Below are positions 6,570 to 54,117 of a stretch of DNA of 64,000 nt, in pieces. The stretch covers positions 1-64,000 of the IMG/VR virus record IMGVR_UViG_3300012001_000008; one strand, given 5' to 3'. The translations under genes and the position numbers were made by a program. Position 1 is the stretch's first letter. Each line of letters begins with the position of its first letter. This DNA comes from a virus. Below the pieces are notes generated by a model that saw nothing but the letters and a program-made list of their open reading frames with translations, was not told the origin of the DNA and did not search any database.

Positions 6570-6628
6570 AAAAGCTTGTGTTTTGGATAAAAAAAGAGCA
6601 TAATTGCAAGCCAGAAGGGTTAAACAAA

Positions 6629-8282: not shown

Positions 8283-8348
8283 ATGGGCTTGTGTTTTTAG
8301 AAAAAAAAGAGCATAATTCGAGTTATAAAGCAAACAAGAAAGGCTTAT

Positions 8349-14882: not shown

Positions 14883-17800
14883 TTATACCAAAATGCTGTT
14901 CCGACCACTCATTTGGGTCTTTTCGTTAATAAGGTCGATAATCTTTGTGGCAATCTTATCTTCACCAATTTGTACGGTTAGGTTAATTGGCTGTCCATTG
15001 CTACCACCGTTTGAAGCATTAATCTTCTCGGCGAGCATATCAATCCAACCAGTGTTGTTCTCAAGAGGCATGACAGCCTCTGTTCCTGCTTCACCGATAA
15101 TTGCGTTTGTAGGTTTGTTTACGATACCACCCTTTGCCAAGCGAGGAAGAACTAGGTGAGGCATCTTGCCAATACTTACACCTGGAATCTTGTTGATAAG
15201 GTCGATAGCACCGTTAATCAGGTCAACAACCGTGTTAACGATTCCTGATACCGCGTTAAGAACTGTGTTCACAACTGTCTTGAACGCGCCACCGATAGCA
15301 TTACCAATAGTTGTACCAATCGAACCAAAGATACCTGTAATAGTATTCCAGATACTCTGGAAGAAGCCTGTGACCGCGCTAAAGGCTACCTTAATGCCAT
15401 TCCATGCAGCTCCGAATACCCCTGCGAAGAATCCAATGATAGGGTTGAAAACGCCCATAATGAAGTTGATTATTCCGACATAGAAGGAGATATAGGCACT
15501 AAAGGCAGCAACAATGAAGTTCCATGCGTTTGTGAATACCGTCTTGAAGAAGTTGGCTATAGGTGTAAATACTCCCACAATGAAGTTAACAATGGCGGTG
15601 AATATGGCGTTAATCTGTGTCTGGAAGGTTAAGTAAAATCCTATGGCAAGCGAGAATGGTAGGAACAATATTGCTAGGATTGTGATTCCCCATTGGTTAA
15701 TGAAGGCAGCGATAGCGTTAAAGATTGTAGAGAAGAAGTTACCAATACCTGTTAGAACTCCGCCAATAAAGCTTCCAATTGCTGTAAATAGTCCTGTAAT
15801 GAAGGCTCCGACGTTAGCTACAATACCCTGTATGAAGCCCCATATTGTACCCCAGTTCTGCCACAGGAGGATAACAATTGCAATAATAGCAACAATCGCA
15901 ATGACGATTAGGAACATAGATAGTTGAAGCACGGTTATACCAAGAGCAGCTGCGATGGCTGAGATACCAAATACCGCAAGTGCGATAGCGATAACACCAA
16001 CTACAACAGCGAATCCGATTAGGAATGGAACAGGATTGGAGCTAATGAACTTACCAATCGTTTCGAATGGGTTAGGAACGCCCTTGCCCAAGTCGCCCTT
16101 AAGTGCGTCGAAGTTCTTTGTCATATCCGCAAGAGACTTGTCAAAAGCGCCTGTGTCAATATTTGGTGAGCCAAGAGCGCCAGCTGGTCCAGATAGGTTT
16201 GGAAGCGAAGGAAGACCAGGAATACCCATGCCCGTCTTTGGTCCGAGGACATTCATCTTGTCAAATGAAGCAAGCTGTCCTTGCGCACCCTGAGCATTAT
16301 CGCCGACTTGCTTGAGAGAGTCGTTAAGGGCAGAAAGACCACCAGTACTGGTCTTGTTACCAGCACCATTGACTGCTGTAAGTTGCTTCTGTAGACCACT
16401 TAGTGAACTACCGAAGCCAACCGCAGAACCTTGTGCAGTATTAGTAGAGCTAGAGAATACTCCAAGCATACCGAGGATAATAAGTACACCAGCAGCTAGA
16501 AGTAGGAGTGGAAGTAGAGCAGCTTGTAGAATAAGCGCACCAGTAGCCGCTACGGTCAAGCCACCACCAGCGACAACACCAGCAGCTCCAACGCCAGCAA
16601 CAGCAGGGATAGTAGCAGTACCAGCGGCAGCAAGTAGGTAGTTAAGGATGATGTAAGCAGCGATAATACCACCAACGATGATTAGGGCAGAACCAAGTGG
16701 TCCACCGATAACCGCGCCGAGATAGATAAGCCCACCAGCAACTAGCAATCCTATAGAGGCAAGCACACCAAGCGCCTGAGCCATAACAAAGATTTGCTGT
16801 ACACCGTTAATGATAACTGAACCAACAAGCTTGATGCTCTGGTATAGAGACGAGAAGTAGCCGATAAGCGGACGAATAGTAAGCGCGGAAGCAAGGAAGC
16901 TAACAATTAACTGCTGGATACTTGGGTCAAGCGTACCAATGACACCGATAACATTGAAGATTATCTTAAGCGCGATACCAAGGGCGTTTGCAACGCTTTG
17001 TACGGCGAGAGCAGTGAACTGGAATAATGCCTGTAGCTGACCTTGTCCCTTAGCACTGTTTACCCAGGCTGTCATAGCGTTTACTATTCCAGTTAAGGTA
17101 GTGATAAGAGAAACTCCACTTATTGCAGAGGATGCGAATATCGAACGTACGAAGCCAAATACAGCGCCAACAAGCGCCCCGATTTGCTGAATAGCAATGA
17201 TACCTTCTTGGATTGCAATGTTAAGTGCAGTTTGACCCTTAGCAGAACTAAGATATGCAGCACCAGCAGTTGCAAGATTAACAAGGAATTGCGCAAGGAG
17301 CGATACATATGGGGCTGTGATGAGGTACAACTGCATAAAGATTGTGAACATTGGTTGTAGCGCACCAGTAAGGATATTAATAGTACGAGCAGTGTCTTGG
17401 AAGATTCTCGCTAGGAGACCAGCAAAGACAGGCTGTGATGCAATATTAGCAGCCTGTTTGAACATACCGTTTAATGCGCGACCAACGATTTGGAAACCAG
17501 CATTAACTGTTGGAAGGATTTGTGCGCCTAGTTGTAGTAGTGTCGAACCGACACCCTGTAGCATCGCCTGCTGGGTATTAAGCTTAACGCTATTGAAGGC
17601 TTTATTAAGACCACCGAGGGCGTATGCTGTTGATTTAGCAGCTGGACCAAGATTAACCATCGCTTGACGGAAGGCTACTGGGTCATTCTTCTGGATTGCT
17701 TTGAATGCTTGTGAAAGACCAGATAGACCAGTCTTAAATGTTAGAGCAGCAGCTCCACCTTGCGCAAGTACAGGCAAAAGAATAGAAACGGTTGAACCCG

Positions 17801-18107
17801 CAGCTACTAATGCACCACCAAGTTGTAGGACTGCACCAGATAGTGCAGCAACTCCAATAATGAGCGAGGTTGTTTGAAAACCTTGCATCGCAACACCGAA
17901 GTTGCGAATAGAAGACGCAGCAACTTGTGCTGTCTTCCTAATATCTTTGAAGTTGTTTTCGGCTTTCTTGGTGTTTGCTCCACCAAGATTCTTCTTAATA
18001 GAAGCACCTGTAGCTTTCGAAGCAGCGTCAGCTTCAATAAGTCCGCGAATAAAAGCGGAAACATCAGCGTCGATGATATATTTTACTGTTTCGCCTTTGC
18101 CTGCCAT
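14883..18107 (-). CDS. Tail tape measure protein
   Basis: 1074 aa, Ala/Gly/Ile-rich amphipathic repeats, LAKGGIV..PT.AIIGEAG.EAV.PL motif. Confidence 0.9.
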   Translation of the reverse strand: MAGKGETVKYIIDADVSAFIRGLIEADAASKATGASIKKNLGGANTKKAENNFKDIRKTAQVAASSIRNFGVAMQGFQTTSLIIGVAALSGAVLQLGGALVAAGSTVSILLPVLAQGGAAALTFKTGLSGLSQAFKAIQKNDPVAFRQAMVNLGPAAKSTAYALGGLNKAFNSVKLNTQQAMLQGVGSTLLQLGAQILPTVNAGFQIVGRALNGMFKQAANIASQPVFAGLLARIFQDTARTINILTGALQPMFTIFMQLYLITAPYVSLLAQFLVNLATAGAAYLSSAKGQTALNIAIQEGIIAIQQIGALVGAVFGFVRSIFASSAISGVSLITTLTGIVNAMTAWVNSAKGQGQLQALFQFTALAVQSVANALGIALKIIFNVIGVIGTLDPSIQQLIVSFLASALTIRPLIGYFSSLYQSIKLVGSVIINGVQQIFVMAQALGVLASIGLLVAGGLIYLGAVIGGPLGSALIIVGGIIAAYIILNYLLAAAGTATIPAVAGVGAAGVVAGGGLTVAATGALILQAALLPLLLLAAGVLIILGMLGVFSSSTNTAQGSAVGFGSSLSGLQKQLTAVNGAGNKTSTGGLSALNDSLKQVGDNAQGAQGQLASFDKMNVLGPKTGMGIPGLPSLPNLSGPAGALGSPNIDTGAFDKSLADMTKNFDALKGDLGKGVPNPFETIGKFISSNPVPFLIGFAVVVGVIAIALAVFGISAIAAALGITVLQLSMFLIVIAIVAIIAIVILLWQNWGTIWGFIQGIVANVGAFITGLFTAIGSFIGGVLTGIGNFFSTIFNAIAAFINQWGITILAILFLPFSLAIGFYLTFQTQINAIFTAIVNFIVGVFTPIANFFKTVFTNAWNFIVAAFSAYISFYVGIINFIMGVFNPIIGFFAGVFGAAWNGIKVAFSAVTGFFQSIWNTITGIFGSIGTTIGNAIGGAFKTVVNTVLNAVSGIVNTVVDLINGAIDLINKIPGVSIGKMPHLVLPRLAKGGIVNKPTNAIIGEAGTEAVMPLENNTGWIDMLAEKINASNGGSNGQPINLTVQIGEDKIATKIIDLINEKTQMSGRNSILV

Positions 18108-21415: not shown

Positions 21416-23596
21416 TTAAGAGATTGAAGCACCTGTGATAGCAGCTACTAGACGTGTGTCCTTAACTACACCACCACGGAAGAATGAGCCACGTAGGACT
21501 ACTTCGTTACGTTGGTAGGCAGAGTAAGTAACTCCATCAATTTCGTAAGATGCGCTACCGTCAACGTCGTACTTTAGACCACCTGATGTGCGACCTGTGA
21601 AGGTGCTTAGGTCAGCGTAGAATACAGCGCTTGTGATAGTTACTGCAACACCGTGAACTAGGAAAGAACGAGTCTCGCTAGTGTTAAGTGTAGGAAGCAA
21701 GTCGTTTGGAACAGTAACGAATGGTGTACCGAAGATAGTGTTGTTAGACACTTCTTGTAGAACAGCAGCGTTAGATGTAGAAACAGCTTGTCCGATTAGG
21801 AAGCTCTTAGTCTTGTTGTTGAAGATAAGAGTACCAGTGCTTGTAGCGTCAGATGCAAGAGCAACTGCTTGTGCCCAGCCAACTAGACCATCAGAGATGT
21901 CCATGATGTGAACTTGTCCGCTAGTTTGAACAGCTTGTTCCATACGAGCAACAACAAGTTGAGCACGCTTACGGTCGTAGTCTGAACGGTAGCCTTCTGC
22001 GATGTCACCAAGGATGTCAGCAGCAGCAAACTTAATTACGTTGATAGAGATAGGAGTAACAGCAGCCATTTCTTCTAGGCGGTCAGTGTTAGCACCGTAA
22101 CCAGTTTGGCTAATAGGCTTCAAACGGTTTCCGTCATCACCAGAGATACCAAGTGGCACTGATTTCATGTCGATGTCAGAAGAACGAGTCAACCAACCGA
22201 AGTCGATAGAGTTAGTCTCTTTCCAAGTAGTCATGTTCAATAGTGTTGTGTAGTTGTTACGCTTTGTAGCGATTTCGTTGTAAAGCTCAGGAGCAATAAC
22301 AAAGTTACCAAGGTCTTCAAGAGTAAGGCTGTTTTTAACAATCTTTTCTTCCTTAAGAGCGTTTAGGTTACGTTCGTTAATCTCGCGAAGGGTCTTTGCA
22401 CCTTCTACAGAGTTCATGCGCTCTACGGCAACAGCAGCGTTAAGTTGCTTTGCGAATAGTTCGTCGCTAGAAAGTTCGTCAAGTGCGTTCTTAGCTTTTT
22501 CAGCTTCTTCGGCAGCGTGGAACTCAGGAGCTTTAGCAGCAGCGTCAAGAGCGTTTTGTGCTAGTTCTTTAGAAGCAGCGATTTCGTCTTGTACTGGCTT
22601 AAGAGCAGCAGATACAGCGTTAGCTACGATTTCTGCGATTTCTTCTTTAGTCATTTGATTTTCCTTTTGGTTTAATTCTTTTTCTTTTGCAGCATTTTCT
22701 TCTGCTTCTTTTGCTTCGGCTTCTGCTTTCGCGTCTTCCTCTGCTTTAGCTTCTTCTGCTAGTTTGGCAGCTTCTGCTTCTTCCTCAGCCTTTTTATCAG
22801 CTTCGGCTTTTTCAGCTTCTTCGGCAGCTAGCTTTGCAGCTTCTGCTTCCTCAGCTTCTTTTGCAACCTTAGCAGCTTCTTCGGCTTCTAGGGCTTTCTT
22901 CTCTTCTTCTGCTTTAGCAGCTTCTTCATCAGAGGCGTCTTGCTTTGCTTTTTCAGCAGCAGCATTTTCAGCTTCAATTCTTGCAGCTTCTTCAACAGCG
23001 AGTTTTTCTTTTTCTTCTTTTGTCATGCTTTCTTCCTCATTAGCCTTTGCAGCATTTGTGATAACTGCTTCGATACCGTCGGTATCAAGACCGTTTGATT
23101 TAGAGCGTTCAAGTGAGTTATGAACAATCTCGTTAAATTGATTTGCAACAGCATTGTAGTTGTTTGGTAGAACTACCTGAGACAATCCTACTAGTTCAGC
23201 GTTGTAGAAGATTCGGTCTTGTTCATCGGGGTATGGTCCCATTGTTTCAATACTAAATGAGTTCGAGAACCCACCCACAAAGAGGTCGTATGCAAGTTTT
23301 GCATATGCGTTTTGTGATGTTGCATATTGAATGGCGGAGACGATAACGCGATTTCCCTGCTTGGCGACACCGATTGCTTTACCAATCAGGTTGCCGAGTG
23401 AATCGACGTGGTCAGCAGTAATCTGCTTACCGTACTGGGTAATGTCCATCGAAGAGATGTCATACTTAGTACCGTTGCGCTGAACAGAATCATCCGTGAT
23501 AGTGAGACCGCCAGGGAAGGAGATTAATCCGTCGCCTTCGTCTACAAAGCTATTCTTAGAAACTGAGACTTGTAATTGGTTTGTTTTTTTTTCCAT
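21416..23596 (-). CDS. Prohead protease - scaffold - major capsid fusion (HK97 fold)
   Basis: N-terminal TADH / SFSIE / ELVGLSQVVLPNN protease-like motifs, central E/A/K coiled coil, C-terminal capsid motifs GNFVIAPEL and SAYQRNEVVLRG. Confidence 0.8.
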   Translation of the reverse strand: MEKKTNQLQVSVSKNSFVDEGDGLISFPGGLTITDDSVQRNGTKYDISSMDITQYGKQITADHVDSLGNLIGKAIGVAKQGNRVIVSAIQYATSQNAYAKLAYDLFVGGFSNSFSIETMGPYPDEQDRIFYNAELVGLSQVVLPNNYNAVANQFNEIVHNSLERSKSNGLDTDGIEAVITNAAKANEEESMTKEEKEKLAVEEAARIEAENAAAEKAKQDASDEEAAKAEEEKKALEAEEAAKVAKEAEEAEAAKLAAEEAEKAEADKKAEEEAEAAKLAEEAKAEEDAKAEAEAKEAEENAAKEKELNQKENQMTKEEIAEIVANAVSAALKPVQDEIAASKELAQNALDAAAKAPEFHAAEEAEKAKNALDELSSDELFAKQLNAAVAVERMNSVEGAKTLREINERNLNALKEEKIVKNSLTLEDLGNFVIAPELYNEIATKRNNYTTLLNMTTWKETNSIDFGWLTRSSDIDMKSVPLGISGDDGNRLKPISQTGYGANTDRLEEMAAVTPISINVIKFAAADILGDIAEGYRSDYDRKRAQLVVARMEQAVQTSGQVHIMDISDGLVGWAQAVALASDATSTGTLIFNNKTKSFLIGQAVSTSNAAVLQEVSNNTIFGTPFVTVPNDLLPTLNTSETRSFLVHGVAVTITSAVFYADLSTFTGRTSGGLKYDVDGSASYEIDGVTYSAYQRNEVVLRGSFFRGGVVKDTRLVAAITGASIS

Positions 23597-23715: not shown

Positions 23716-23741
23716 CCAAAAAGGGGATTTTTCAACCCCCT
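23716..23741 (-). terminator. Probable intrinsic terminator after the 1999-aa gene
   Basis: GGGG...CCCC-TTTTT on the minus strand. Confidence 0.5.
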
Positions 23742-26700
23742 ATAAAGCCTCTATCCAGTTGCCATTTGAGTCTTTGTAGTAGACTTCCGCCTGTACCCAG
23801 TTGCCATTAACAGGGTAGAATACCATAGCGTTAACCCATTGTCCGTTAATGAGTACCCACTTGCGACCCAGTAGCGTGTATAGTGCAGAGTCTGTGGTGT
23901 GGAATACTATCGAAGCAGAAGATAACGATGAGTCAGTTGTATGTGTTACTTCACTTGTACCGCGCTTATTCGCATCTGTTGCGTGGGAAACGACGATAGT
24001 CGTGCGTAGCTGGGCGTCTGTTGAGTGCGTGATAACATAACGCTGTTTCAGCAGAGCGTCTGTGCTATGAACTATCTGTGTCAACTTACGCTTGTTGGCA
24101 TTAGTCGTGTGATAAACAGTATCAGCCTTACGCTTGTTCGCATCTGTGAACTGGGCGAGGCTAAATAGCTTGCGTATAACAGAACTTGTTGTGTGCGATA
24201 CTACTGTTCTTCGTACAAGTAGAGCATCGGTGAAGTGGGATACTGTAGTGCTAATTCGCTTGAGCGCGTCTGTCGTGTGTGTAACTACAACTACCTTGCG
24301 GAGTAATGAATCGGTCGTGTGTACCCGTGTATTAGCACTTAGTACAGACTTGTTCGCATCTGTTGTGTGAGAAATACTGCTTGTAGTTCTTAAGACTGCA
24401 TCTGTTAAGTGTGAGGCAGTTGTACGAGAGCGCTTCAATGTATTGGTAGTGTGATACTTGCTATTTGCTTTCTTGATATTTGCGTCTGTTGCGTGTGAGA
24501 CGGTTCGCTTGCTTCTTAGCAGGCTATCTGTGGTGTGTACAAGTTGTGTCAACTTACGCGCGAGAGTGTCTGTAGTGTGCGAAAGACTTAGCGCCTTACG
24601 GATTGCAGAACTTGTAGAGTGGGCGACAGTGTTAGCTGTGTGCCTGTTCGCGTCAGTAAGGTGGTGTCTCTTAATTGAAGCTACTCTCTTGTTGGAATCT
24701 GTCGTGTGGCTTAGTTGGTTTGCACCATGTATGAAGGAGTCAGTTGTGTGTACAACAGTGATAGTCTTCTTCTTATTTGCATCGGTAGTATGCGAAGTAG
24801 TTAGCGAACGATGAGTGAACGCATCTGTGGTGTGAACCTTCGTATTTGTACGACGTATATCAGTGTCAGTTGTGTGAGAAAGTATGTTCTGAGTGCGCTT
24901 TAACGCGTCAGTTGTATGTGTTTTCGTTAGGGCTTTGCGTGTATTCGTATCTGTTGTGTGAGAGATTGCAAGGCGCTTACGCAATAATGAGTCAACCGTG
25001 TGCGTTAGCGATACCGCGCTACGAATAAGCGCATTTGTTGTGTGCGTGAGTGAATTACGTGTCTTCTTTAGGGCATCAGTTGTGTGGAACTTGCTATTTT
25101 GAGTTCTCTTAAGAGTGTCGGTTGTGTGTACGACTACATTGGCTTTGCGCTTATTAGCGTCAGTTGCATGAGTTAGAGTTACCTGTTTGCGCAGCACAGA
25201 ACTCGTAGTATGAGTATGTGTGCCTGATTTGCGGACAAGGCTATCTGTGGTATGGCCCTTAGACGACGTGAGACGACGCAGGGCGTCTGTTGTGTGCGAA
25301 AGTGCGCCCTGTGTGCGTATTAACGAATCTGTCGCGTGTGAGAGGCTATTTCCAGCCTTTTTCTTGTTTGCGTCAGTTGTGTGGCTAACAGCAGACTGGC
25401 TGAATAGGAATGAATCGGTAGTATGTGAAAGCGTATGCTTACTTCTAACAAGCGCGTCTGTCGTATGCGTTTTGGTGAATTGTTTATGAGTTACAGCACT
25501 TGTAGTGTGTGAAACTGAATTAGAACTACGCTTTAGGGCATCTGTTGTATGCGATAGGGTGAGATTAGCTTTTCTCTTGTTCGAATCAGTAGTGTGGAGT
25601 ACTGTAGTAGCCTTGCGCAGGTTGCTATTTGTCGTGTGGGCGACTGTTTGTGCCTTCTTCTTATTGGCAGATGTTGTGTGCGAGATTGTTTTTGAAACTC
25701 GCAAGAACGAATCAGTCGAGTGCGATAGGGTTGATGACTTACGCAATACAGCACTAGTTGTGTGGTTAACAGTGCTACTAGTACGCTTTAGGGCGTCTGT
25801 GGTGTGGGTTTTAGTGGTGGCAAGGCGCTTATTAGCACTAGTTGTGTGAGAAAGTGTTAAACCAGCCTTCTTTTTGTTCGCGTCGGTAGTGTGGGTCTTA
25901 GAGACACTCTTTCTTAGGAATGAATCAGTAGTTTGGGTAAGTGTAATAGACTTACGCGCGAGCGCATCAGTGGTGTGTGATACTGTTACCTGCTTGTGCC
26001 TGAGTGAGTCAGTTGTGTGGGAAAGCGTGTTTGTAGTACGTTTAACGGTATCTGTTGTGTGAGATAGCGTATTGCCTTTACGCTTAATTGCATCAGTTGC
26101 GTGTGTCTTGACACTTTGAATACGTTTTAGTGCATCCGTGGTATGCGTCTTAGTAACTTGGACATGCTTTAGAGCGTCGGTTGTGTGCGTTCTTGTAGCC
26201 TGAATGTGCTTGAAGGAGTCGGTAGTGTGTGTTTTAGTACCAGACTTGCGCAATACGGAACTAGTTGTATGTGTCTGTGTGCTAGCCTTGCGCTTAAGTG
26301 CATCAGCCGTGTGGGTCTTCGTTACCTGTACACGCTTCAATGCGTCAGTTGTGTGTGCGACAGTTAGCGTCTGTATGCCAGTGCGAAGATACGAATCTGT
26401 CGTATGGGTAAGAGTGAGACCACCCTTCTTCTTTAGGGAGTCTGTTGTGTGTGTGCGAGTTAGGGAGGCAACCTTCTTATTAGCGTCTGTGGTGTGGCTA
26501 GCTGTACCCTGTTTACGAATGAGTGTGTTTGTTGTATGCGTCTTTAGTAGACCAGATACCTTCTTGCTTGCATCTGTTGTATGTGTCTTTGTGACAGCTA
26601 GTCGCTTATTAGCGCTAGTGGTGTGGGTTAGCGTAGCCTGCTTACGCTTTAAGGTGTCAGTTGTGTGGGTCTTATTACTAGATGTGCGCTTTAGTGAATC

Positions 26701-29700
26701 CGTTGTGTGTGTAAGCGTATTAGCCTTGCGCTTAAGGGAATCTGTAGTATGGGTATCGTTAACCGCCTTACGCTTGTTTGAGTCTGTTGTGTGCGAACGA
26801 GTATAACTAGAAACACCAGAACCAATTGTGAAGTCTGATGCAGTTTCTGCATTTCCACCATAAGAAACCTTAGTACCATCTGTACTAGATTCAGTTCCCC
26901 ACACTTGCCAGTGATAACTCGTGCCAGATGTTCCGCTAGTGAAACGACTATAGAACGGAGTATAGACAGCTGGTGCTTTTTCAGCCCAAGTACTGCTATT
27001 TGGTGTGCTGTAGTTAGGTGTTAGTTCCCAAGTGTCGTTATACCAAGTACCTGTAGATGGGCGACCACCAAATATGTATAGCTTTCCAGAGATAAATGAA
27101 CTCATTGATGTACGACGAGCTGCTGGACCACCAGTAGGTGTTGCAGAAGCCCATGTTGTACCAGATAGAGAGAAGTATTGTAGTGATTGTAGTACGTTTG
27201 TGCCATCGAAACCACCCCAGATAATGAGCTGGTCGTTTGTTGCGTCATAGGCATAGTTTGGCGTACGACGAGCAGTACCACCAGAAGATGTTGGCGTTAC
27301 CCAAGCACCACTAGTAGTCGAGTAGTCAAGATATACGAGTTGGCTTGAAACGGTTGTAAGAGCAGCATCAGTTGCACCACCATATAGGTACATACGAGTG
27401 TTGCTTGTCTTATTGAATACACCTGGACCCAACACTGCTGTAGGCGCTGTGCCAGTAGGGGTGCGTAGTGTCCAAACACCATCAGCACTTGACGAGAAAC
27501 TTAGCTCCCATACTTGGTTATATGCAGTAGAAGCATCTCCACCCATAGTGAAGATTGCGCGGTTATTCGTAGCATCGAAAATACCGACAGATAGCCAGCG
27601 AGGAGATGGAGGTGTCCCAGTAGGGTTAAGCTTTGAGGCTGTATAGTTACCGAGTGAGTCGGCAGTTAAAGCCCAGACCTCATTGCTGTTCTGTGAGCCA
27701 CCATTAAGACCACCGAAGACAATAACACGACTACGGGTAGAGTCGTATACACCAGCAATACCCTCCATAGGAGGAAGTGTCTTAAAGCCTTTGTTTGTGT
27801 AGCGCCAAGTATTATTGCTCTGATTGTATGCCCATATATCACCGACGTGTGAACCAGTGACAATGGTGGCACTGTCGTACATGTCCGCGAAGCCACCAAC
27901 AATTACCCACTCAGAGCGGTCAGAGTTCCAGATGCTAGCGTTCGCGTCGCGTGATGTAAGATATTCACCCTGAGATAGACCATATACGACAGAGCTTGCT
28001 TCCGTCATGTCGATAGCGTATTGGTAGCGCTCTGTACTATCCACCGTTTCCATTCCACGAAGGACTAGATAGTTTAAGTCTGTGTTTATGGTGTTGGCGG
28101 TATAGACGTTACCAGCAAAGGCTTGGTCGGTTGTACTATTGGCGCGGAGTTGTACATATGCAGGAGAGCCGTCTAGGTCAGAGATGTAGCCAACGTCGTT
28201 ATAAGCACTTGCCTGTGTACCCTGAAAACCAGCTGCATAGAAGAAGCGGTTATTAACGGCATCGTAACCACCAGAAGAGAACTCACGACCTGCTGGGGCT
28301 GTGCCAGAAGGAGTAATTTGAGTCCAAGCATTTCCAGCTATGTCATAAGACCAGAAGTCTGATAGGTATGTAGTACCGTTGTAGCCACCGAATAGAAATA
28401 GTTTGCCAGTTGAAGACTTATAGTCAATAACAGCACCAGTACGAGCAGAAGGGCTACCAGCTGCACCATCGGCTAATAAGACTGTCCATGTAAGTGAGCC
28501 AGGGGAGTCAACATCGAAAGTACCGCGCCAAAGCGTGTTGACACGAGTCGCGCCAGGCCAACCACCGAACATGTAGACATAGTTCTGTGAAGCATCGCCA
28601 GATACAGGGATAGCTGCCATTTGACGAGTGATGTAACTCATCGCTGTTGGTGTGTTTGTCTGTGTTACTGTTGTCCAAGACTCACCACCAGGTGTAGATA
28701 CGTCAAGAGCGTGCATTTCGCTTAGGTCAGAGCCAGTAGTACCACCCCATATAACCATGAATGCCTTATCAGCACCACCAGATGTAGCAGTACCGCGTAC
28801 ATATGTCGCCCCAGCAAGGTTCTTCGCTGTAGGAGGAGTACCAGTTGGAGATAGCTTGCGCCAAGGCATACCAGGACGGTCAGCAGGCTGTTCCCATGCT
28901 TCGTTATAACGAGTTGTGCCATCGTAACCACCAAAGAAGATATAGCGCTTATTCTTCTTGTCATAGATTAAGTTAGCACCACGATTACCGTGTGATACGG
29001 CTGTCATCGACTGAGAACGTGTACGCTCCGTGATATTAGCAGTATTTGTGAAGCTCGTGCTTGTGTTTTGTACCTCTGCCTTGAGTATGTCTTGGTTGCC
29101 AACAACACCGCTAGTATATTCAGAGTTGAGGTTCACATAGGTTGTCACGCCATCTGTAGTAGATGTCCCAACAGGGGTGATAGTGCTAAAGTCGTCCGCG
29201 TATTGACCGAGCGTTCTTACTGTGGGAGTAAGTGTGGGGAACGGAGTAACGATACTAGTGCTTGAGCCACCAGTTTCTATAGCAACAGATACAGCACCAC
29301 CGTGCGAGTTGGTGCTACGGAACTGGTAGCGAATACGAAGACGGTCTGTAGAAGAACCAGCAGACCATGTAAGTGAGCTGAATGTGAAGGTTTTAATACC
29401 TGTCGTCGAGATGTTATTTTCGGCGCTAATTGTCTTACTCTCCTGAACCGTGCCAGAGCTATTTATGCGTTCTAACTGTACGGCGAGGTAAACAGAGCTA
29501 CTCGCAGTCGTTACGTTTACATTTACAGTAATAGTACCGCTCGTAAAGGTGCTTATTCCAGGCTCGTTTGGTTTAGTGTATCCAAAGCTTGCCTCTGTCG
29601 CGGAGTTTGTTACGGCAACAGTAATAGACCCTGCTGCTTCTGCAACTAGGGTCTCGTTCTTGTTAAATACTACACCACCAGTTAGTGCCGAGTCGGTGGC

Positions 29701-29724
29701 GCTAAGATAGTATGTTCTAGCCAT
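23740..29724 (-). CDS. Giant virion-associated protein: Kelch beta-propeller repeats plus ~65 tandem 15-aa HTTD repeats
   Basis: Repeated FGG/WGG...W Kelch motifs in the N-terminal half; repeat region 23880-26805; likely start MARTYY. Confidence 0.85.
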   Translation of the reverse strand: MARTYYLSATDSALTGGVVFNKNETLVAEAAGSITVAVTNSATEASFGYTKPNEPGISTFTSGTITVNVNVTTASSSVYLAVQLERINSSGTVQESKTISAENNISTTGIKTFTFSSLTWSAGSSTDRLRIRYQFRSTNSHGGAVSVAIETGGSSTSIVTPFPTLTPTVRTLGQYADDFSTITPVGTSTTDGVTTYVNLNSEYTSGVVGNQDILKAEVQNTSTSFTNTANITERTRSQSMTAVSHGNRGANLIYDKKNKRYIFFGGYDGTTRYNEAWEQPADRPGMPWRKLSPTGTPPTAKNLAGATYVRGTATSGGADKAFMVIWGGTTGSDLSEMHALDVSTPGGESWTTVTQTNTPTAMSYITRQMAAIPVSGDASQNYVYMFGGWPGATRVNTLWRGTFDVDSPGSLTWTVLLADGAAGSPSARTGAVIDYKSSTGKLFLFGGYNGTTYLSDFWSYDIAGNAWTQITPSGTAPAGREFSSGGYDAVNNRFFYAAGFQGTQASAYNDVGYISDLDGSPAYVQLRANSTTDQAFAGNVYTANTINTDLNYLVLRGMETVDSTERYQYAIDMTEASSVVYGLSQGEYLTSRDANASIWNSDRSEWVIVGGFADMYDSATIVTGSHVGDIWAYNQSNNTWRYTNKGFKTLPPMEGIAGVYDSTRSRVIVFGGLNGGSQNSNEVWALTADSLGNYTASKLNPTGTPPSPRWLSVGIFDATNNRAIFTMGGDASTAYNQVWELSFSSSADGVWTLRTPTGTAPTAVLGPGVFNKTSNTRMYLYGGATDAALTTVSSQLVYLDYSTTSGAWVTPTSSGGTARRTPNYAYDATNDQLIIWGGFDGTNVLQSLQYFSLSGTTWASATPTGGPAARRTSMSSFISGKLYIFGGRPSTGTWYNDTWELTPNYSTPNSSTWAEKAPAVYTPFYSRFTSGTSGTSYHWQVWGTESSTDGTKVSYGGNAETASDFTIGSGVSSYTRSHTTDSNKRKAVNDTHTTDSLKRKANTLTHTTDSLKRTSSNKTHTTDTLKRKQATLTHTTSANKRLAVTKTHTTDASKKVSGLLKTHTTNTLIRKQGTASHTTDANKKVASLTRTHTTDSLKKKGGLTLTHTTDSYLRTGIQTLTVAHTTDALKRVQVTKTHTADALKRKASTQTHTTSSVLRKSGTKTHTTDSFKHIQATRTHTTDALKHVQVTKTHTTDALKRIQSVKTHATDAIKRKGNTLSHTTDTVKRTTNTLSHTTDSLRHKQVTVSHTTDALARKSITLTQTTDSFLRKSVSKTHTTDANKKKAGLTLSHTTSANKRLATTKTHTTDALKRTSSTVNHTTSAVLRKSSTLSHSTDSFLRVSKTISHTTSANKKKAQTVAHTTNSNLRKATTVLHTTDSNKRKANLTLSHTTDALKRSSNSVSHTTSAVTHKQFTKTHTTDALVRSKHTLSHTTDSFLFSQSAVSHTTDANKKKAGNSLSHATDSLIRTQGALSHTTDALRRLTSSKGHTTDSLVRKSGTHTHTTSSVLRKQVTLTHATDANKRKANVVVHTTDTLKRTQNSKFHTTDALKKTRNSLTHTTNALIRSAVSLTHTVDSLLRKRLAISHTTDTNTRKALTKTHTTDALKRTQNILSHTTDTDIRRTNTKVHTTDAFTHRSLTTSHTTDANKKKTITVVHTTDSFIHGANQLSHTTDSNKRVASIKRHHLTDANRHTANTVAHSTSSAIRKALSLSHTTDTLARKLTQLVHTTDSLLRSKRTVSHATDANIKKANSKYHTTNTLKRSRTTASHLTDAVLRTTSSISHTTDANKSVLSANTRVHTTDSLLRKVVVVTHTTDALKRISTTVSHFTDALLVRRTVVSHTTSSVIRKLFSLAQFTDANKRKADTVYHTTNANKRKLTQIVHSTDALLKQRYVITHSTDAQLRTTIVVSHATDANKRGTSEVTHTTDSSLSSASIVFHTTDSALYTLLGRKWVLINGQWVNAMVFYPVNGNWVQAEVYYKDSNGNWIEAL
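23880..26805 (-). repeat. Degenerate 45-nt coding tandem repeat (HTTD[AS]xxR)
   Basis: Recurrent CACACAAC[AT]GA every ~45 nt on the minus strand. Confidence 0.9.
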
Positions 29725-30112
29725 TCTTTGGCTCTCCAACCACTACTGGTTCAGCAGGGTGTAGCCATTCGCCATAGTCTTCGAAGGCTATCTTTTCTAT
29801 CTTCATTAGATTGTCCCAGTGCGTGTATTTTCCATAGAGAATATGACCACTGACCTTAGTAGTGTCATCAAAGTGGGAGGTGAAGCGTAGGTCTTCTGTG
29901 AGGGCATAGTAATCGCAACCAGAAGAGTATAGACGGGTGTGCCGTCCCATGCCATCAAGTTTAACGAAGTAAATCATTACAACCTGAATGTCATCGGTAG
30001 GAGCTTTTGTCCATTCCTTGTACGTTGTGCCTGTGTAAGTACTATCAGAGTACCAGATTTTGAATCCAGCAACTTCCTGATAGTCCAATTGTGGTGTTAT
30101 AGAAGTATCCAT
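29717..30112 (-). CDS. Hypothetical protein
   Basis: 131-aa ORF in the tail-tip operon. Confidence 0.7.
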   Translation of the reverse strand: MDTSITPQLDYQEVAGFKIWYSDSTYTGTTYKEWTKAPTDDIQVVMIYFVKLDGMGRHTRLYSSGCDYYALTEDLRFTSHFDDTTKVSGHILYGKYTHWDNLMKIEKIAFEDYGEWLHPAEPVVVGEPKNG

Positions 30113-42025: not shown

Positions 42026-43441
42026 CTAGAAGCCAAGCCTATTCATGTTATGCTTATCGTCCTTAATCTTGCCGTGGAACTTGCTGTGCATACGGACAGC
42101 AATACTGAATGAGTCAGCGAAGTCGGGTGAGCGTCCGAGGACTTCTTTTATCTTGTCCTTCTTGGTGACCTTCTCTACACCATCCACCATATCGGTGTCA
42201 TGGGCAGATAGTTCTCGCCATAGCTCATCATCATGTCCTCTATAGGACTCTCTCTGTAGGACTTGGACTTCCCCTTCGTCTAATGCTCTACGCATATTGA
42301 GCATCGTTTCATTGCGCGACTTGCCTGTAGCGGTGTATTCGTCTATGTGCCAACCGAGTATCTTCATACTGTCACGCATAGCAGTACCAACGCCGTTTAC
42401 CTCTAGGCTTATCTGTCGTGCTTGTCCCTTAGTGAATCCCTTGCTCTCGGCGAAGGCAATTAACTGCTGGGCGAATAGGTATCCTGTTGGGCGCGAGTCT
42501 ATCTCGCTATTCTGACCATAGGTGCGTTCAGGAATCTTGAGTTCCTTCTGCTCTGTGAGAACGCCATACTCAATAAGACTGACTACGGTAGCGTCGCCAC
42601 CATTATCGCTTACGTCCACGCCGATGACCTTGTCTAGCTTATAGCGTGAGTCTTTAGGAATGACGTTGCCCTGCTCGTCTCGCTCTGGCTCTGGTAGCTT
42701 GAAGATGCTTGCCTTCTCCCACAGGTAGCCAGTAATGAGGGCGCGGTCTTCATCGAGATAGTTCCAGTTATTGTAGAGGTAGCGTTGCGCCCACCACTTT
42801 GGCTTGCTCTTTATAAGGGAGTTAATGTCTTGGTCGGTCTGCCAAGAGTCCTCTAGGGTGAACTCTATGACCATAACATTGCTAGGTAGTTCGTTCTTCT
42901 TCCACTTGTCGTAGTAACGGCTCTTTGTCCAACCGTTATTAGGGTTCATTGTGTGGATGTTAATGCTTGGCTGTCCCTGTTGGTTAGCACGACCTTTACG
43001 ACTCATAATCATGTCTACTGCATCTTCGATTAGCTCGTTGCTTTCCTCTAGTTGGTTAGCGGTAATGTCGAGTCCCTTAATCTTGTTCTGGTCGCGGTCG
43101 GTAGAGCTATCTGCTTGGGCGAAGGTGATAATGCTCTTATTGGGGAACTCAATCAAGAGTGAGCCTTCATTAAGGCGATAGTGGTCTTCCTCAATCATGT
43201 TCATATCGGCGAGCATCTTCTTGTATGTACGCCAGATAGTCTTACGCGCAGTGTTGAAGTTCTTGCGCCAGACAAACATCTGCGAGTAGGGGAACTCGTT
43301 AGCTATAGAGATGAAGACATGGGCAGCGAGAGCAGACTTACCCACACCAGTTGGACCAATAAGAATCAACTCGTCAATATCTGGACGGTTGTTAAGGATG
43401 TCGATGACCTCTTGTTGCTTAGGCTTAAGCTGTAGAGCCAT
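42026..43441 (-). CDS. Terminase large subunit
   Basis: LKPKQ, Walker A GPTGVGKS, TMNP coupling motif, nuclease IGVDVS and LGRSPDFADS. Confidence 0.92.
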   Translation of the reverse strand: MALQLKPKQQEVIDILNNRPDIDELILIGPTGVGKSALAAHVFISIANEFPYSQMFVWRKNFNTARKTIWRTYKKMLADMNMIEEDHYRLNEGSLLIEFPNKSIITFAQADSSTDRDQNKIKGLDITANQLEESNELIEDAVDMIMSRKGRANQQGQPSINIHTMNPNNGWTKSRYYDKWKKNELPSNVMVIEFTLEDSWQTDQDINSLIKSKPKWWAQRYLYNNWNYLDEDRALITGYLWEKASIFKLPEPERDEQGNVIPKDSRYKLDKVIGVDVSDNGGDATVVSLIEYGVLTEQKELKIPERTYGQNSEIDSRPTGYLFAQQLIAFAESKGFTKGQARQISLEVNGVGTAMRDSMKILGWHIDEYTATGKSRNETMLNMRRALDEGEVQVLQRESYRGHDDELWRELSAHDTDMVDGVEKVTKKDKIKEVLGRSPDFADSFSIAVRMHSKFHGKIKDDKHNMNRLGF

Positions 43442-45717: not shown

Positions 45718-45925
45718 TTAATAGTCCTTCCGTAGAAATGACTTGCCAAATCTCACCCCAGTTAAATGCAACGATTGCCACAAGGACGATAGCGAGCGCT
45801 ATACAGATTCCTAATGCGAGAGTTGTGCCGTTATAGTCTTCGTTCATTTGTTTAAAGCCTTTCTTACTGTCTTTATATTTTAATTATGCTCTTATTCGGC
45901 GAAAAACACAAGCCCTTTTATCAAA

Positions 45926-45954
45926 GAAAATAGACGCCATTATAGCGCCTATCT
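45926..45954 (-). terminator. Intrinsic terminator closing the non-coding transcript
   Basis: ATAGGCGC-TATAATG-GCGTCTAT-TTTCTTT on the minus strand. Confidence 0.7.
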
Positions 45955-45982
45955 TTCACATCCCCTTTGAACTCAATCCCAC

Positions 45983-46466
45983 ATTAAGCGCACAATTCTG
46001 GTAAGTAGCTCGTTTGTCGTGCAGGGGCTACTTTAGGATTGAGGTGGCGACCCTTCGCTGTTTCGCGTATCGTGACTCATTTGATACTTACCAGAACTAT
46101 GTGTTTAATTATTAAATGCACACACGGGGGGACGTTTTCACCAATGACCGTTTTAGATGGACAGTCCACGGTTTCAGAAGGACTTATACAACGGAGCTAC
46201 CGTCTTGTAACCTCATATCCGCCGTGTGGCGTAAGTAGCTACCTCCCCCTCTGTGTGCATTTATTCAATAAGTGACAATCCAGCAAGCACGTCCGTAGAC
46301 ACATGTATCCTACGGCGTACTCGTGTGTACATCACAGGGGGTATTCTTCGCGTTGCAGGGTTAGTGGTTCCGCTCCCCCATCTGGGCTATGACTATTTTC
46401 CGATTGCCGTCCCTCACTCTTGCAAGAGCTTCTCGGTTCGACCTGCTTACCAGATTATCACTTATT
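45983..46466 (-). ncRNA. Candidate ncRNA with three tandem units, each closed by a long stem
   Basis: Inverted repeats 45983-46007/46085-46109, 46113-46132/46244-46263, 46267-46289/46444-46466; promoter 46490-46518; no sense ORF of 60 aa or more. Confidence 0.7.
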
Positions 46467-46522
46467 TGTCTGTTAATGTTCTATAGTTAATTATGCTCTT
46501 TTATGTGCGAAAACACAAGCGT

Positions 46523-52467: not shown

Positions 52468-54117
52468 TCACGAAACATCTCCCCTCTTATTAACAAAGAT
52501 TTTGAGGGTTCGTCCGTCGTCCTGTAGTGAAGCCTCGACTTGCTTATTAGCATTCCAGAACACTACTTCGCGTCCGATACCCATACCGTTGCCGTGGCAA
52601 GATGGGCATTCGAAACGTCCAGGCTGTCCAGAGATATAGATAGTTCCTACGCCAAGACAAGCGTCACAGATAGTATTATCAATAATCTCTAGGCGAGTGA
52701 CGTTAGATAAGTTTTCCATCGTTTTCCTCATCTCTATAGTCTTTAGCCCATTCTTTCAATTCTTCCGATACATGAGAATAAGCTTTCTTCTCATCATCCG
52801 TGTTGTCGTACTCTTCGCTCTTGTTCTCAACCCAGCCGTCAATCATTTTGGCAAAAGCCTCAAGAACATTTGCGGTTTGTTCGTTATTACTCATTCCAAG
52901 CCCTCTTGAATCGTGCTTGATATGCAGAACGCCCCATACCAGTTTGTGCCACGCATTGTGCTTCAAGTTCGGCTTCGTAGTCGGCAGAGTTCATAAACTC
53001 CTCTTGCACCTTACGAGCCACTTGCTTAACAACAATATGTTGTGGGCGATTAACTGGCATGTGACGTACTATTTCACTCCTGTATCCCATTGAGACAGCT
53101 TCCGCTTTAGTCTTGATGACTATGTCTTCGATGGTTGGGTATTCGACGGTTATTGTAGTTTTCATTGTTATAAGCCTTTCTTATTTGCCTTATAACTAGA
53201 ATTATGCGCCTTTTTCGCCGAAAACACAAGCCCTTTGTTAGGCTTTTTGTAGTTTTGGTTGAAACCGAGCGTCGTTATACTCTTGGATAGCCTCGATAAT
53301 TAGTCGGGGGTTATAACGATTGCTGATTGCGCGAGCAATGGTAAGGGAGCTACATCCAGCTTCGTGCATTGCTGCATATTCTGCCTTCAAGGTTTCCTTA
53401 ATTTGTTCGTTAGTTCTACGAATCATATTGTCCTCCTTTCTTTACAACACCAATTATGGGGTTATTTATAGGAAAACACAAGCCCAATTTATAAAAACTT
53501 GTGATTACACTTGCGACACACCGTAACTTTGTTCAGATACAGTCCTACCGCCGTCTTTAGTAATCTCAGTGACAACTTTGCGCTTAATTGCGCCACAATT
53601 AGGGCATTTTATCTTACCGCTATTGACTATAAGTGCAACTGGGACATAGACTACAATAAATAAAATTGGAGTAATAACAAAGATTGCGAATAGTATCCAG
53701 AGAATCGTGTTATTATAATTAGCCTGCTCTTGGGCAAGGACTAATGATTGGTTATACGCTTGTAATGTATCCATATTTTGAATTATGCTCTATTTTTTAT
53801 AAAAACACAAGCACTAGCTTTTTGCACCACCGTGGAAGGCTGCGTAGAGCAAGATTCCAGCAATTATAAGTAGGAATAAAATCGTCATAATACTGCCTTG
53901 CAGTTCTTCGTCATTCAACAATGATAGTAGTCTTTTCACTTGGCTTTTCCTTTATCGCTTTAACAATTTCTATTGCTATCTGTAACCCATTATGAGAACC
54001 AAATCGAAACCATTTAACACTTCTCTCATCGGCGACATCTATTTCAAGCTTCTTAACATCGACGAGCTTGAGCATTTCCACCAATTCTTGTTTTTGTTTT
54101 TTAGTTAGATTCACCAT
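52468..54117 (-). CDS. Small hypothetical genes (52468-52719 DnaJ-type CxxCxGxG, 52703-52894, 52887-53165, 53238-53426, 53505-53774 TM plus zinc ribbon, 53911-54117)
   Basis: ORFs, four of them directly behind their own promoter copy or variant (53201, 53453, 53782, 54132). Confidence 0.65.

Follow-up and report, generated by a model that had tools for sequence, protein, structure and literature searches.

Within a 64,000-nucleotide stretch of viral DNA (the first 64 kb of the 72,923-bp IMG/VR contig IMGVR_UViG_3300012001_000008, here G000; this whole stretch is referred to below as the window), a segment of the minus strand running from a promoter to a terminator carries three different structured RNA units, placed head to tail and each closed by a long helix between its own 5′ and 3′ ends. 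The interpretation favored here, to which a probability of about 0.6 may be assigned, is that this cassette is a self-contained operon of stable non-coding RNAs (ncRNAs), organized in the manner of a ribosomal RNA (rRNA) operon, whose units represent new families and are probably released by RNase III. This interpretation is carried by the anatomy of the cassette, by the conservation of the same type of cassette in related phages, by selection that keeps the transcribed strand paired, and by the exchange of units between phages.

No other inverted repeat in the window is as strong as the closing helices of the three units. In a scan of the 72.9-kb contig, three repeats scored at least 14.5, whereas 20 dinucleotide shuffles yielded 0.1 such repeats on average, and the two best reached 19 and 18, the highest maximum of any shuffle being 15. 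The folds are likewise stronger than chance: −71.4 kcal/mol for unit 1 (z −4.25; antisense −57.8), −59.2 kcal/mol for unit 2 (z −4.54; antisense −53.9) and −35.3 kcal/mol for unit 3 (z −3.55), with a z of −5.20 for the whole cassette stretch, and no shuffle folded as well as any of the three units or the whole.

The promoter is an exact copy of a near-invariant pattern, CTTGTGTTTT-N12-AGCATAAT, which stands upstream of most short genes on both strands, in most cases with AAGAAAGG and a start codon coming next. Allowing up to three mismatches, the pattern occurs 18 times in the window where 0.15 would be expected, a number that none of 100 shuffles reached (examples lie at 61–90, 6575–6604, 8288–8317, 45883–45912 and 53782–53811). 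The cassette copy is sigma-70-like and typical of the clade, with a putative −35 element TTGTGT, a 17-nt spacer and the −10 element CATAAT; as the −35 part is unusual, the phage or its host may have a sigma preference of its own. When the pattern is made stricter, 11 copies are left in the contig; ten of them lead into a ribosome-binding site and a start codon, and only the cassette copy has no ribosome-binding site with ATG behind it. The promoter copy on the downstream side precedes a ribosome-binding site, an ATG and an open reading frame (ORF) of 45 amino acids (aa) that looks membrane-like.

This layout had been proposed in an earlier note on the same DNA, which spoke of a repeated promoter and a terminator bounding a stretch with no sense ORF of 60 aa or more, and of three abutting units with their stems and shared words; in all these respects the description holds. 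The terminator has a 13-pair hairpin and a U-run, and the spacers are exactly 3 nt each, GAA between units 1 and 2 and ATA between units 2 and 3. The stem of unit 1 consists of 19 Watson–Crick and four G·U pairs on the minus strand, with zero A·C. The word TCTGGTAAG (46454–46446 and 46095–46087) and the word AGCTACTTAC (46240–46231 and 46010–46001) each have exactly two occurrences on the minus strand of the window. None of the three sense frames of 46490–45926 stays free of stops for more than 41 aa, and the sole sense ORF of at least 30 aa that lies fully within the transcribed stretch is found at 46077–46169 (30 aa). Two antisense ORFs of 77–78 aa (46039–46275 and 46253–46486) match no Pfam or PHROG family and cannot be conserved, because the relatives have other units at that place. 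Of the possible pseudoknot suggested in the same note, the complementary words CTCAATCC and GGATTGAG are at the positions given there; comparative support for the pairing of CUCAAUCC with GGAUUGAG is weak, since its 6-nt counterpart in the related phage G004 (CUCAAU / AUUGAG), noticed post hoc in a flank otherwise non-homologous to the window, may be due to chance.

Table 1. Elements of the RNA cassette and its downstream boundary, in window coordinates.
Element	Position	Strand	Remarks
Promoter CTTGTGTTTT-N12-AGCATAAT	46490–46519	minus	0 mismatches to the repeated pattern
Leader		minus	23 nt, between promoter and unit 1
Leader motif GAACATTAACA, boxA-like	46471–46481	minus	at or next to the predicted transcript start
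Unit 1	46267–46466	minus	200 nt; 23-position closing helix plus 3-bp extension; multi-branched interior
Unit 2	46113–46263	minus	151 nt; closing helix of 12 bp + 6 bp; three or four interior hairpins
Unit 3	45983–46109	minus	127 nt; 25-position helix with 21 Watson–Crick, 2 G·U and 2 A·C
GGATTGAG, possible pseudoknot partner	45972–45979	minus	complementary to the unit 3 loop CTCAATCC (46043–46036)
Tail		minus	28 nt, between unit 3 and the terminator hairpin
Intrinsic-terminator-like hairpin	~45926–45954	minus	13 pairs (RNAfold), then a U-run
Next promoter copy	45883–45912	minus	exact pattern match; downstream boundary of the cassette

The large terminase (TerL), used as a single sequence and then as a three-sequence alignment, led to six related viral contigs: G001 (99,006 bp, complete, with terminal repeats; TerL identity 87%), G003 (a 5.9-kb fragment; 83%), G004 (86,430 bp, ~87% complete; 80%), G005 (a 23-kb fragment; 78%), G002 (84,762 bp, complete; 51%) and G006 (an 11.5-kb fragment; 49%). 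The five larger ones were scanned whole with an inverted-repeat finder that weighs G·T and A·C equally. Cassettes of the same design are present in four of the six (G001, G002, G004 and G005), with one to four units in varying combinations, and were not found in G003 and G006, both small fragments. In G001 the flanks of the slot are conserved at 73–77% identity (the upstream ORF and promoter on one side, the terminator and next promoter on the other, with 77% between window 45958–45844 and the end of the slot); the content differs, and consists of two stem-closed units, uA of 271 nt and uB of 123 nt, followed by two ORFs. These ORFs (L003 1904–2723; 155 and 119 aa), which have no Pfam or PHROG family, share a transcription unit with uA and uB and may be functionally linked to the stem-closed RNAs. 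The slot of G004 is occupied by four units, of 173 nt (a), 121 nt (b), 102 nt (c) and 141 nt (d). The G005 cassette (L035 5469–6330, plus strand) occupies a different genomic position, between two large minus-strand genes, and consists of the clade promoter and leader motif and then an 830-nt ORF-poor stretch (z −5.8), in which a 151-nt stem-closed unit comes first and a larger nested structure follows. Finally, G002 has an array of four abutting units of 188, 202, 259 and 180 nt (minus strand, 19307–18478), separated by 3 nt, by 2 nt and by a 4-nt overlap, and bounded by a promoter-like TTGACT-17-TACAAT and a terminator-like hairpin, both read by eye.

When the units of these phages are compared with one another, they form a patchwork. 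Unit 3 of the window and unit b of G004 are 77% identical over 104 nt; the arms of unit 3 also align with those of uB in G001 and d in G004, where the interiors differ, and an inner hairpin, AACGUCAUUCGG...UAUGUGACGUGU, is common to uB, d and part of the third unit of the G002 array. Unit 2 has its homologue in the second unit of that array. Unit 1, unit a of G004 and the first G002 unit are alike in their arms (CUGGUA... / ...UUGCU.CU.G) and not in their interiors; a MAFFT/RNAalifold alignment of unit 1 with the first G002 unit misaligned the arms and was not used. The 66-nt core of unit 1 (46386–46321) recurs with two differences in run X5, which comes from another study of 2025, on a 249-nt contig where the flanks of the core have diverged and the neighboring hairpin has been swapped for a different one. 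As judged from these alignments, whole units have been exchanged between the phages as modules, which agrees with the earlier description of the cassette as several separate structured RNAs. A common element of the arms is GGUA at nucleotides 16–28 from the 5′ end, present in 11 of 15 units (roughly six of ten independent families), where shuffles average 2.5 and none of 2000 reached 11. In the pair formed by unit 3 and b, the conserved single-stranded stretches CAAAUGAGUCACGAUA, ACCUCAAUC and CCCUGCACGACAAA are the best candidate contact sites.

That selection acts on these helices at the level of RNA, as had been claimed before, is borne out by the changes that they have accepted. In the alignment of the closing helices of unit 3, b, uB and d (four sequences), pairing is kept in 91.3% of the 103 cells, and both sides have changed in 13 of the 27 pairs; neither value was reached in any of 500 shuffles, a control that ignores relatedness, and sliding the 3′ partners by one to three columns leaves 29–46% of cells paired and one to four double-changed pairs. 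The RNAalifold consensus helix of unit 3 and b shows three double and four single changes with no broken pair, four stem positions being omitted, and that of uB and d six double and three single changes, again with no pair broken. Between unit 2 and its G002 homologue, the outer helix has five compensatory double changes, and the inner helix of a G-run with a C-run is kept. When both strands are counted alike over 13 closing helices, the transcribed strand has 34 G·U but only 13 A·C (p = 0.0015 in a one-sided binomial test, an optimistic value because of the dependence among homologous units). In 11 of the 13 units the sense strand folds better, the exceptions being unit 3 and b, and the gap is widest in unit c of G004 (−40.7 vs −25.7).

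The leader may bring the cassette closer to the rRNA operons. The motif G[AT][AT]C[AT]TT[AG]ACA is found right behind the cassette promoters of G000, G001, G004 and G005, and also between uA and uB of G001; among the 11 strict-pattern promoters of G000 it follows that of the cassette alone. In six genomes (755 kb of strand-space) it has 13 matches, five in cassettes, three in transfer RNA (tRNA) clusters and five elsewhere, so that eight of the 13 fall within the 2.7% of strand-space made up of cassettes and tRNA clusters, although five of those eight were the ones that defined the motif. The three matches in tRNA clusters (window 4448–4438, minus strand; G001 3744; G002 74530) are on the tRNA strand and between tRNA genes. 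The boxA of the Escherichia coli rrn operons is UGCUCUUUA within ugcucuuuaacaauuua (PMC2724277), the boxA consensus is GYTCTTTAANA with a critical C4 (Baniulyte et al., 10.1101/091223), and boxA recruits NusB/NusE and shields untranslated rRNA transcripts from Rho (PMC4807359). The phage motifs match 7–11 of the 11 consensus positions, 8 in the case of the window motif GAACATTAACA, and all keep C4, with the reservation that this consensus is gamma-proteobacterial and may not be that of the host. A boxA-like element confined to RNA-only operons would fit a role in protection from Rho. A scan with the leader and promoter pattern for more relatives returned only G001, G004 and G005.

If the analogy is accepted, the operation of the cassette might have been as follows. 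The RNA polymerase of the host would make the transcript from the repeated promoter, in early transcription; the boxA-like 5′ element would, with the Nus factors, protect this untranslated RNA against Rho in the same manner as in rrn operons; and host RNase III would cut the helices of 18–25 bp, as in pre-rRNA, a route of release that is plausible by comparison with that system. The cleavage would free RNAs of ~100–190 nt whose ends are protected by the leftover helix, and which would have in common a helical handle, in which the GGUA (~16–28 nt from the 5′ end) is paired to the 3′ arm, and differ in their inner modules. The freed RNAs could then act as scaffolds or decoys for proteins, in the way of Y RNAs. 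That they are decoys for defense systems, as put forward in the earlier note, is conceivable.

Several points weigh against this interpretation. The promoter, boxA and RNase III assignments are made by analogy; a simple consensus scanner called neither the cassette promoter nor its terminator, both of which are called on repeated-pattern statistics, fold and conservation. The leader motifs depart from the published boxA consensus at 1–4 of its 11 positions, and, the motif having been derived from the cassettes, only its three matches in tRNA clusters (~2% of strand-space) are independent. The sets of homologues are small, with two to four sequences per unit family and five genomes, and their relatedness does not enter the shuffle control. 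The antisense strand of unit 3 is more stable than the sense strand (−47.6 vs −35.3 kcal/mol), as is that of its homologue b, and both have sense-strand A·C in the closing stem (two in unit 3, with two G·U; two in b, with three G·U). Among the listed runs that hold the cassette sequence, none is recorded as RNA. Lastly, the units of G001 lie in the 5′ leader of a two-ORF messenger RNA (mRNA), and so may have a cis-regulatory role there.

Other explanations for the helices have to be considered. If the arms were features of the DNA, such as the terminal inverted repeats of miniature inverted-repeat transposable elements (MITEs), recombination sites or hairpin and cruciform origins, it would be understandable that inverted repeats bound the units, that these are swapped as modules between phages, and that unit 3 and b, in which A·C equals or comes near to G·U, fold better on the opposite strand. 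Copies elsewhere, which the earlier note had named as the sign of such MITEs, were looked for in G000 and in the searched sequence of the relatives, and no further unit copy or solo arm was found, only chance matches of at most 16 nt; among 185,579 prokaryote genomes, two patterns derived from the units had 0 matches. Next to the cassette there is no gene for a transposase or a reverse transcriptase and none resembling TnpB, all cassettes have one orientation, behind a promoter, and a recognized RNA, the YrlA-like RNA of G002 described below, is closed in the same way. Given the compensatory pairing, the G·U bias of the transcribed strand, the preference for the sense fold and the lack of dispersed copies, a MITE-like or other DNA-level origin is very unlikely. 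A different possibility, also raised before, is that the whole transcript of ~560 nt is one large multi-domain ncRNA whose helices are architectural and not processing sites. The single promoter and terminator, the spacers of just 3 nt, the fold of the transcript as a whole and the words TCTGGTAAG and AGCTACTTAC, which would permit pairing between units, can be read in that sense. This alternative is weakened because the units differ in combination, order and number between phages (relatives of unit 3 and of uB stand together in G004, unit 2 occurs only in G000 and G002, and G001 has two units plus ORFs); besides, the spacers range from an overlap to 22 nt and no Rfam model of a large RNA matches, all of which makes it quite improbable. 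Nor does it seem that the units are cis-acting leaders controlling downstream genes, as antitermination RNAs or as processing sites that stabilize mRNAs. They do sit right behind the promoter, those of G001 precede two ORFs in the same promoter-to-terminator slot, and in G002 a tRNA-like and a YrlA-like unit precede a Ro60 ORF; yet in the window the last unit is succeeded by a terminator hairpin, and a separate promoter copy stands before the next gene (as in G004, by reading), in G005 there is no sense ORF of at least 70 aa within ~800 nt downstream, and the interiors are too different for one regulatory class, so that this explanation is very improbable for the cassettes in general.

A closer analogy is that with the Y RNAs, which according to Chen et al. 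(2014; PMC4201824) have a long Ro60-binding stem with a large internal loop and measure 80–130 nt; these authors report at least two of them per bacterium, and that in Mycobacterium smegmatis one precursor, upstream of Rsr, gives rise by processing to both YrlA and YrlB. G002 has a Ro60 protein (TROVE 81.3 bits, plus vWA), and upstream of its gene, on the same strand, there follow in order a promoter, a leader (TATAGAACCTTTACAG; window counterpart TATAGAACATTAACAG), a tRNA-like unit and a YrlA-like RNA (L022 877–2700, minus strand, ~61.3–63.1 kb). The tRNA-like unit matches the Rfam tRNA model with 42.8 bits, over model positions 5–66 only, and has an 8-bp closing stem read from the sequence; the YrlA-like RNA that abuts it scores 28.8 bits with RF02553 (E 0.0013; gathering score 69) and has a 27-position helix. 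At this locus, therefore, a recognized class of ncRNA is packaged in the clade exactly as the cassette units are. An ORF resembling a dual-specificity phosphatase lies just upstream of this Ro60 operon. Ro60 genes are common in phages (149 records). Of three other phages whose Ro60 neighborhoods were inspected, only Streptomyces phage BRock gave YrlA-like matches, below threshold (L041 1913–1974 and 2268–2326), in a 580-nt stretch without annotation that separates a tRNA cluster from the Ro-like gene gp191, and none had long ungapped closing helices; the Ro60 locus of an AT-rich megaphage was not interpretable. BRock also has a near-threshold match to manA RNA between two tRNA-Lys genes.

It could be proposed from this that the units are true Y RNAs, the closing helix docking a host-supplied Ro60 (Rsr) and the interior serving as effector module. 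As in Y RNAs, the two ends of each unit pair into a long stem that encloses an inner module; different RNAs with a common handle stand in a row, as the single precursor of M. smegmatis would lead one to expect; the stem-closed layout and the leader are similar at the Ro60 locus of G002; the YrlA-like RNA there has GACGACCGUGAG at the position where unit 1 has GGUCGAACCGAG, just inside its closing helix; and the first unit of the G002 array contains a T-arm-like hairpin, UUAGG-UUCAAAU-CCUAA. On the other side, no TROVE domain (PF05731) was found in G000 (~56% complete), in the complete G001, or in G004, G005 and G006, and the G002 array is 43 kb away from the Ro60 gene of that phage. The RF02553 and tRNA models match no cassette, at E-values up to 10 in G000 and G002 and up to 1 in G001, G004 and G005, where the positive controls (28.8 bits at the G002 Ro60 locus, 32.8 and 32.4 bits in BRock) were themselves all below the gathering score of 69. 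GNCGAAN0-1G near the 5′ end, the proposed contact with Ro60 in that same source (Chen et al., 2014; PMC4201824), has no valid instance: GNCGAA occurs in one of ten units examined, unit 1, as GUCGAA followed by CCG, which with N = 2 breaks the N0-1G rule, and neither units 2 and 3 nor the YrlA-like RNA of G002 itself contain it. Units 1 and 2 (200 and 151 nt) exceed the size range, and the tRNA-like T/D domain is lacking. On such sequence criteria the membership of the cassette units in the Y RNA family is not established, and that they are Y RNAs in the strict sense is unlikely.

The databases offered no other identity. In Rfam 15, a scan of the whole window at gathering score gave only 11 tRNAs, and a search by E-value of the cassette and of the cassettes of the relatives gave nothing or rows at chance level, so that the match to a known family, which had been named beforehand as removing the novelty, did not appear. 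With blastn, the cassette had no match among 50,697 phage records; a 20-mer of the unit 1 core had 0 matches in viral contigs and 0 in genome contigs; the pattern of the hairpin conserved in uB and the third G002 unit occurred only in G001 and G002, with 0 in genome contigs. As handles for further relatives, the neighboring ORF P0002 found nothing, and an upstream ORF resembling a zinc ribbon found only the G001 contig among viral and metagenome contigs. A literature search turned up no description of such phage RNA arrays. For want of a match to any Rfam model, the phi29-type pRNA, 6S RNA, ROOL/GOLLD and self-cleaving ribozymes were set aside as candidates. None of the five genomes encodes a recognizable RNase III or RtcB.

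Judged by these searches and by their structure, the units belong to no described RNA family, the Y RNAs being the nearest analogue, and the cassette, which resembles the rRNA operons in layout and the Y RNAs in the design of its units, fits neither class. With the rRNA operons it shares the one promoter, a helix of ~20 bp flanking each product, the head-to-tail products and, possibly, a boxA element at the 5′ end; in contrast, its products are of 127–200 nt and are not rRNAs, it is carried by a phage and varies among relatives, and Nus binding and RNase III cleavage are only predicted for it. With the Y RNAs YrlA and YrlB (RF02553) it shares, as seen above, the long helix of the ends around a variable module, the succession of several RNAs and the phage location, while the contig of the cassette and its closest complete relative are without Ro60. 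The closing helices of the cassette units also seem to exceed, in length and regularity, those depicted for Y RNAs. Another comparison is that with the species 1 and 2 RNAs of phage T4, which are phage-encoded stable ncRNAs whose role is unknown and which are co-transcribed with other stable RNAs; by their description they differ from the cassette, which is a transcription unit of its own ~40 kb from the tRNA cluster and consists of units closed by long helices. As for the retron-like closure suggested in the earlier note, inverted repeats like a1 and a2 do close a structured RNA of 120–250 nt in retron msr-msd, but the cassette has several different units and no reverse transcriptase (PF00078) is encoded in G000 or in the complete G001 and G002, and the suggestion was dropped.

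With regard to the phage itself, G000 (CheckV completeness ~56%) is a tailed phage with a tape-measure protein (14883–18107), tail proteins, a portal and a large terminase (42026–43441), and its 11 tRNA genes lie at 4.2–6.1 kb. All matches of the terminase among the 50,697 phage records were below 30% identity, which means that there is no close cultured relative in that set. The sequencing runs that hold G000 sequence are soil metagenomes; in runs X1–X4, of one study, the cassette sequence is identical, with zero variants, and X5 spans just the 66 nt of the unit 1 core. The genes that flank the cassette are short, on the minus strand and without family assignment, and Pfam and PHROGs gave no informative family for the ten neighboring ORFs. 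Farther away, an ORF of 1999 aa (23740–29739, minus strand) and one of 726 aa (21416–23596) have no PHROG match at E up to 0.001.

In a broader and rather unlikely version of the stable-RNA operon, these cassettes would represent a modular class of phage RNAs, in which a launcher like that of the rRNA operons drives interchangeable modules that share a handle and that act, free of Ro60, as scaffolds or decoys against the RNA-targeting or RNA-sensing systems of the host, the helices being the joints at which modules are swapped. To our knowledge, very few phage-encoded structured RNAs besides tRNAs have a known role. In any case, a clade of soil phages of roughly 85–100 kb devotes a strong promoter to cassettes made only of RNA, whose units keep their structure, pass between phages as genes do and have no counterpart in Rfam. 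If the analogy with the rRNA operons is true, these phages would express and stabilize untranslated RNAs through the Nus factors and the RNase III of their hosts; and if that with the Y RNAs is true, modular RNAs built of a handle and a payload would extend to phages that lack Ro60, with several new payload domains whose possible partners include host proteins of defense or RNA decay.

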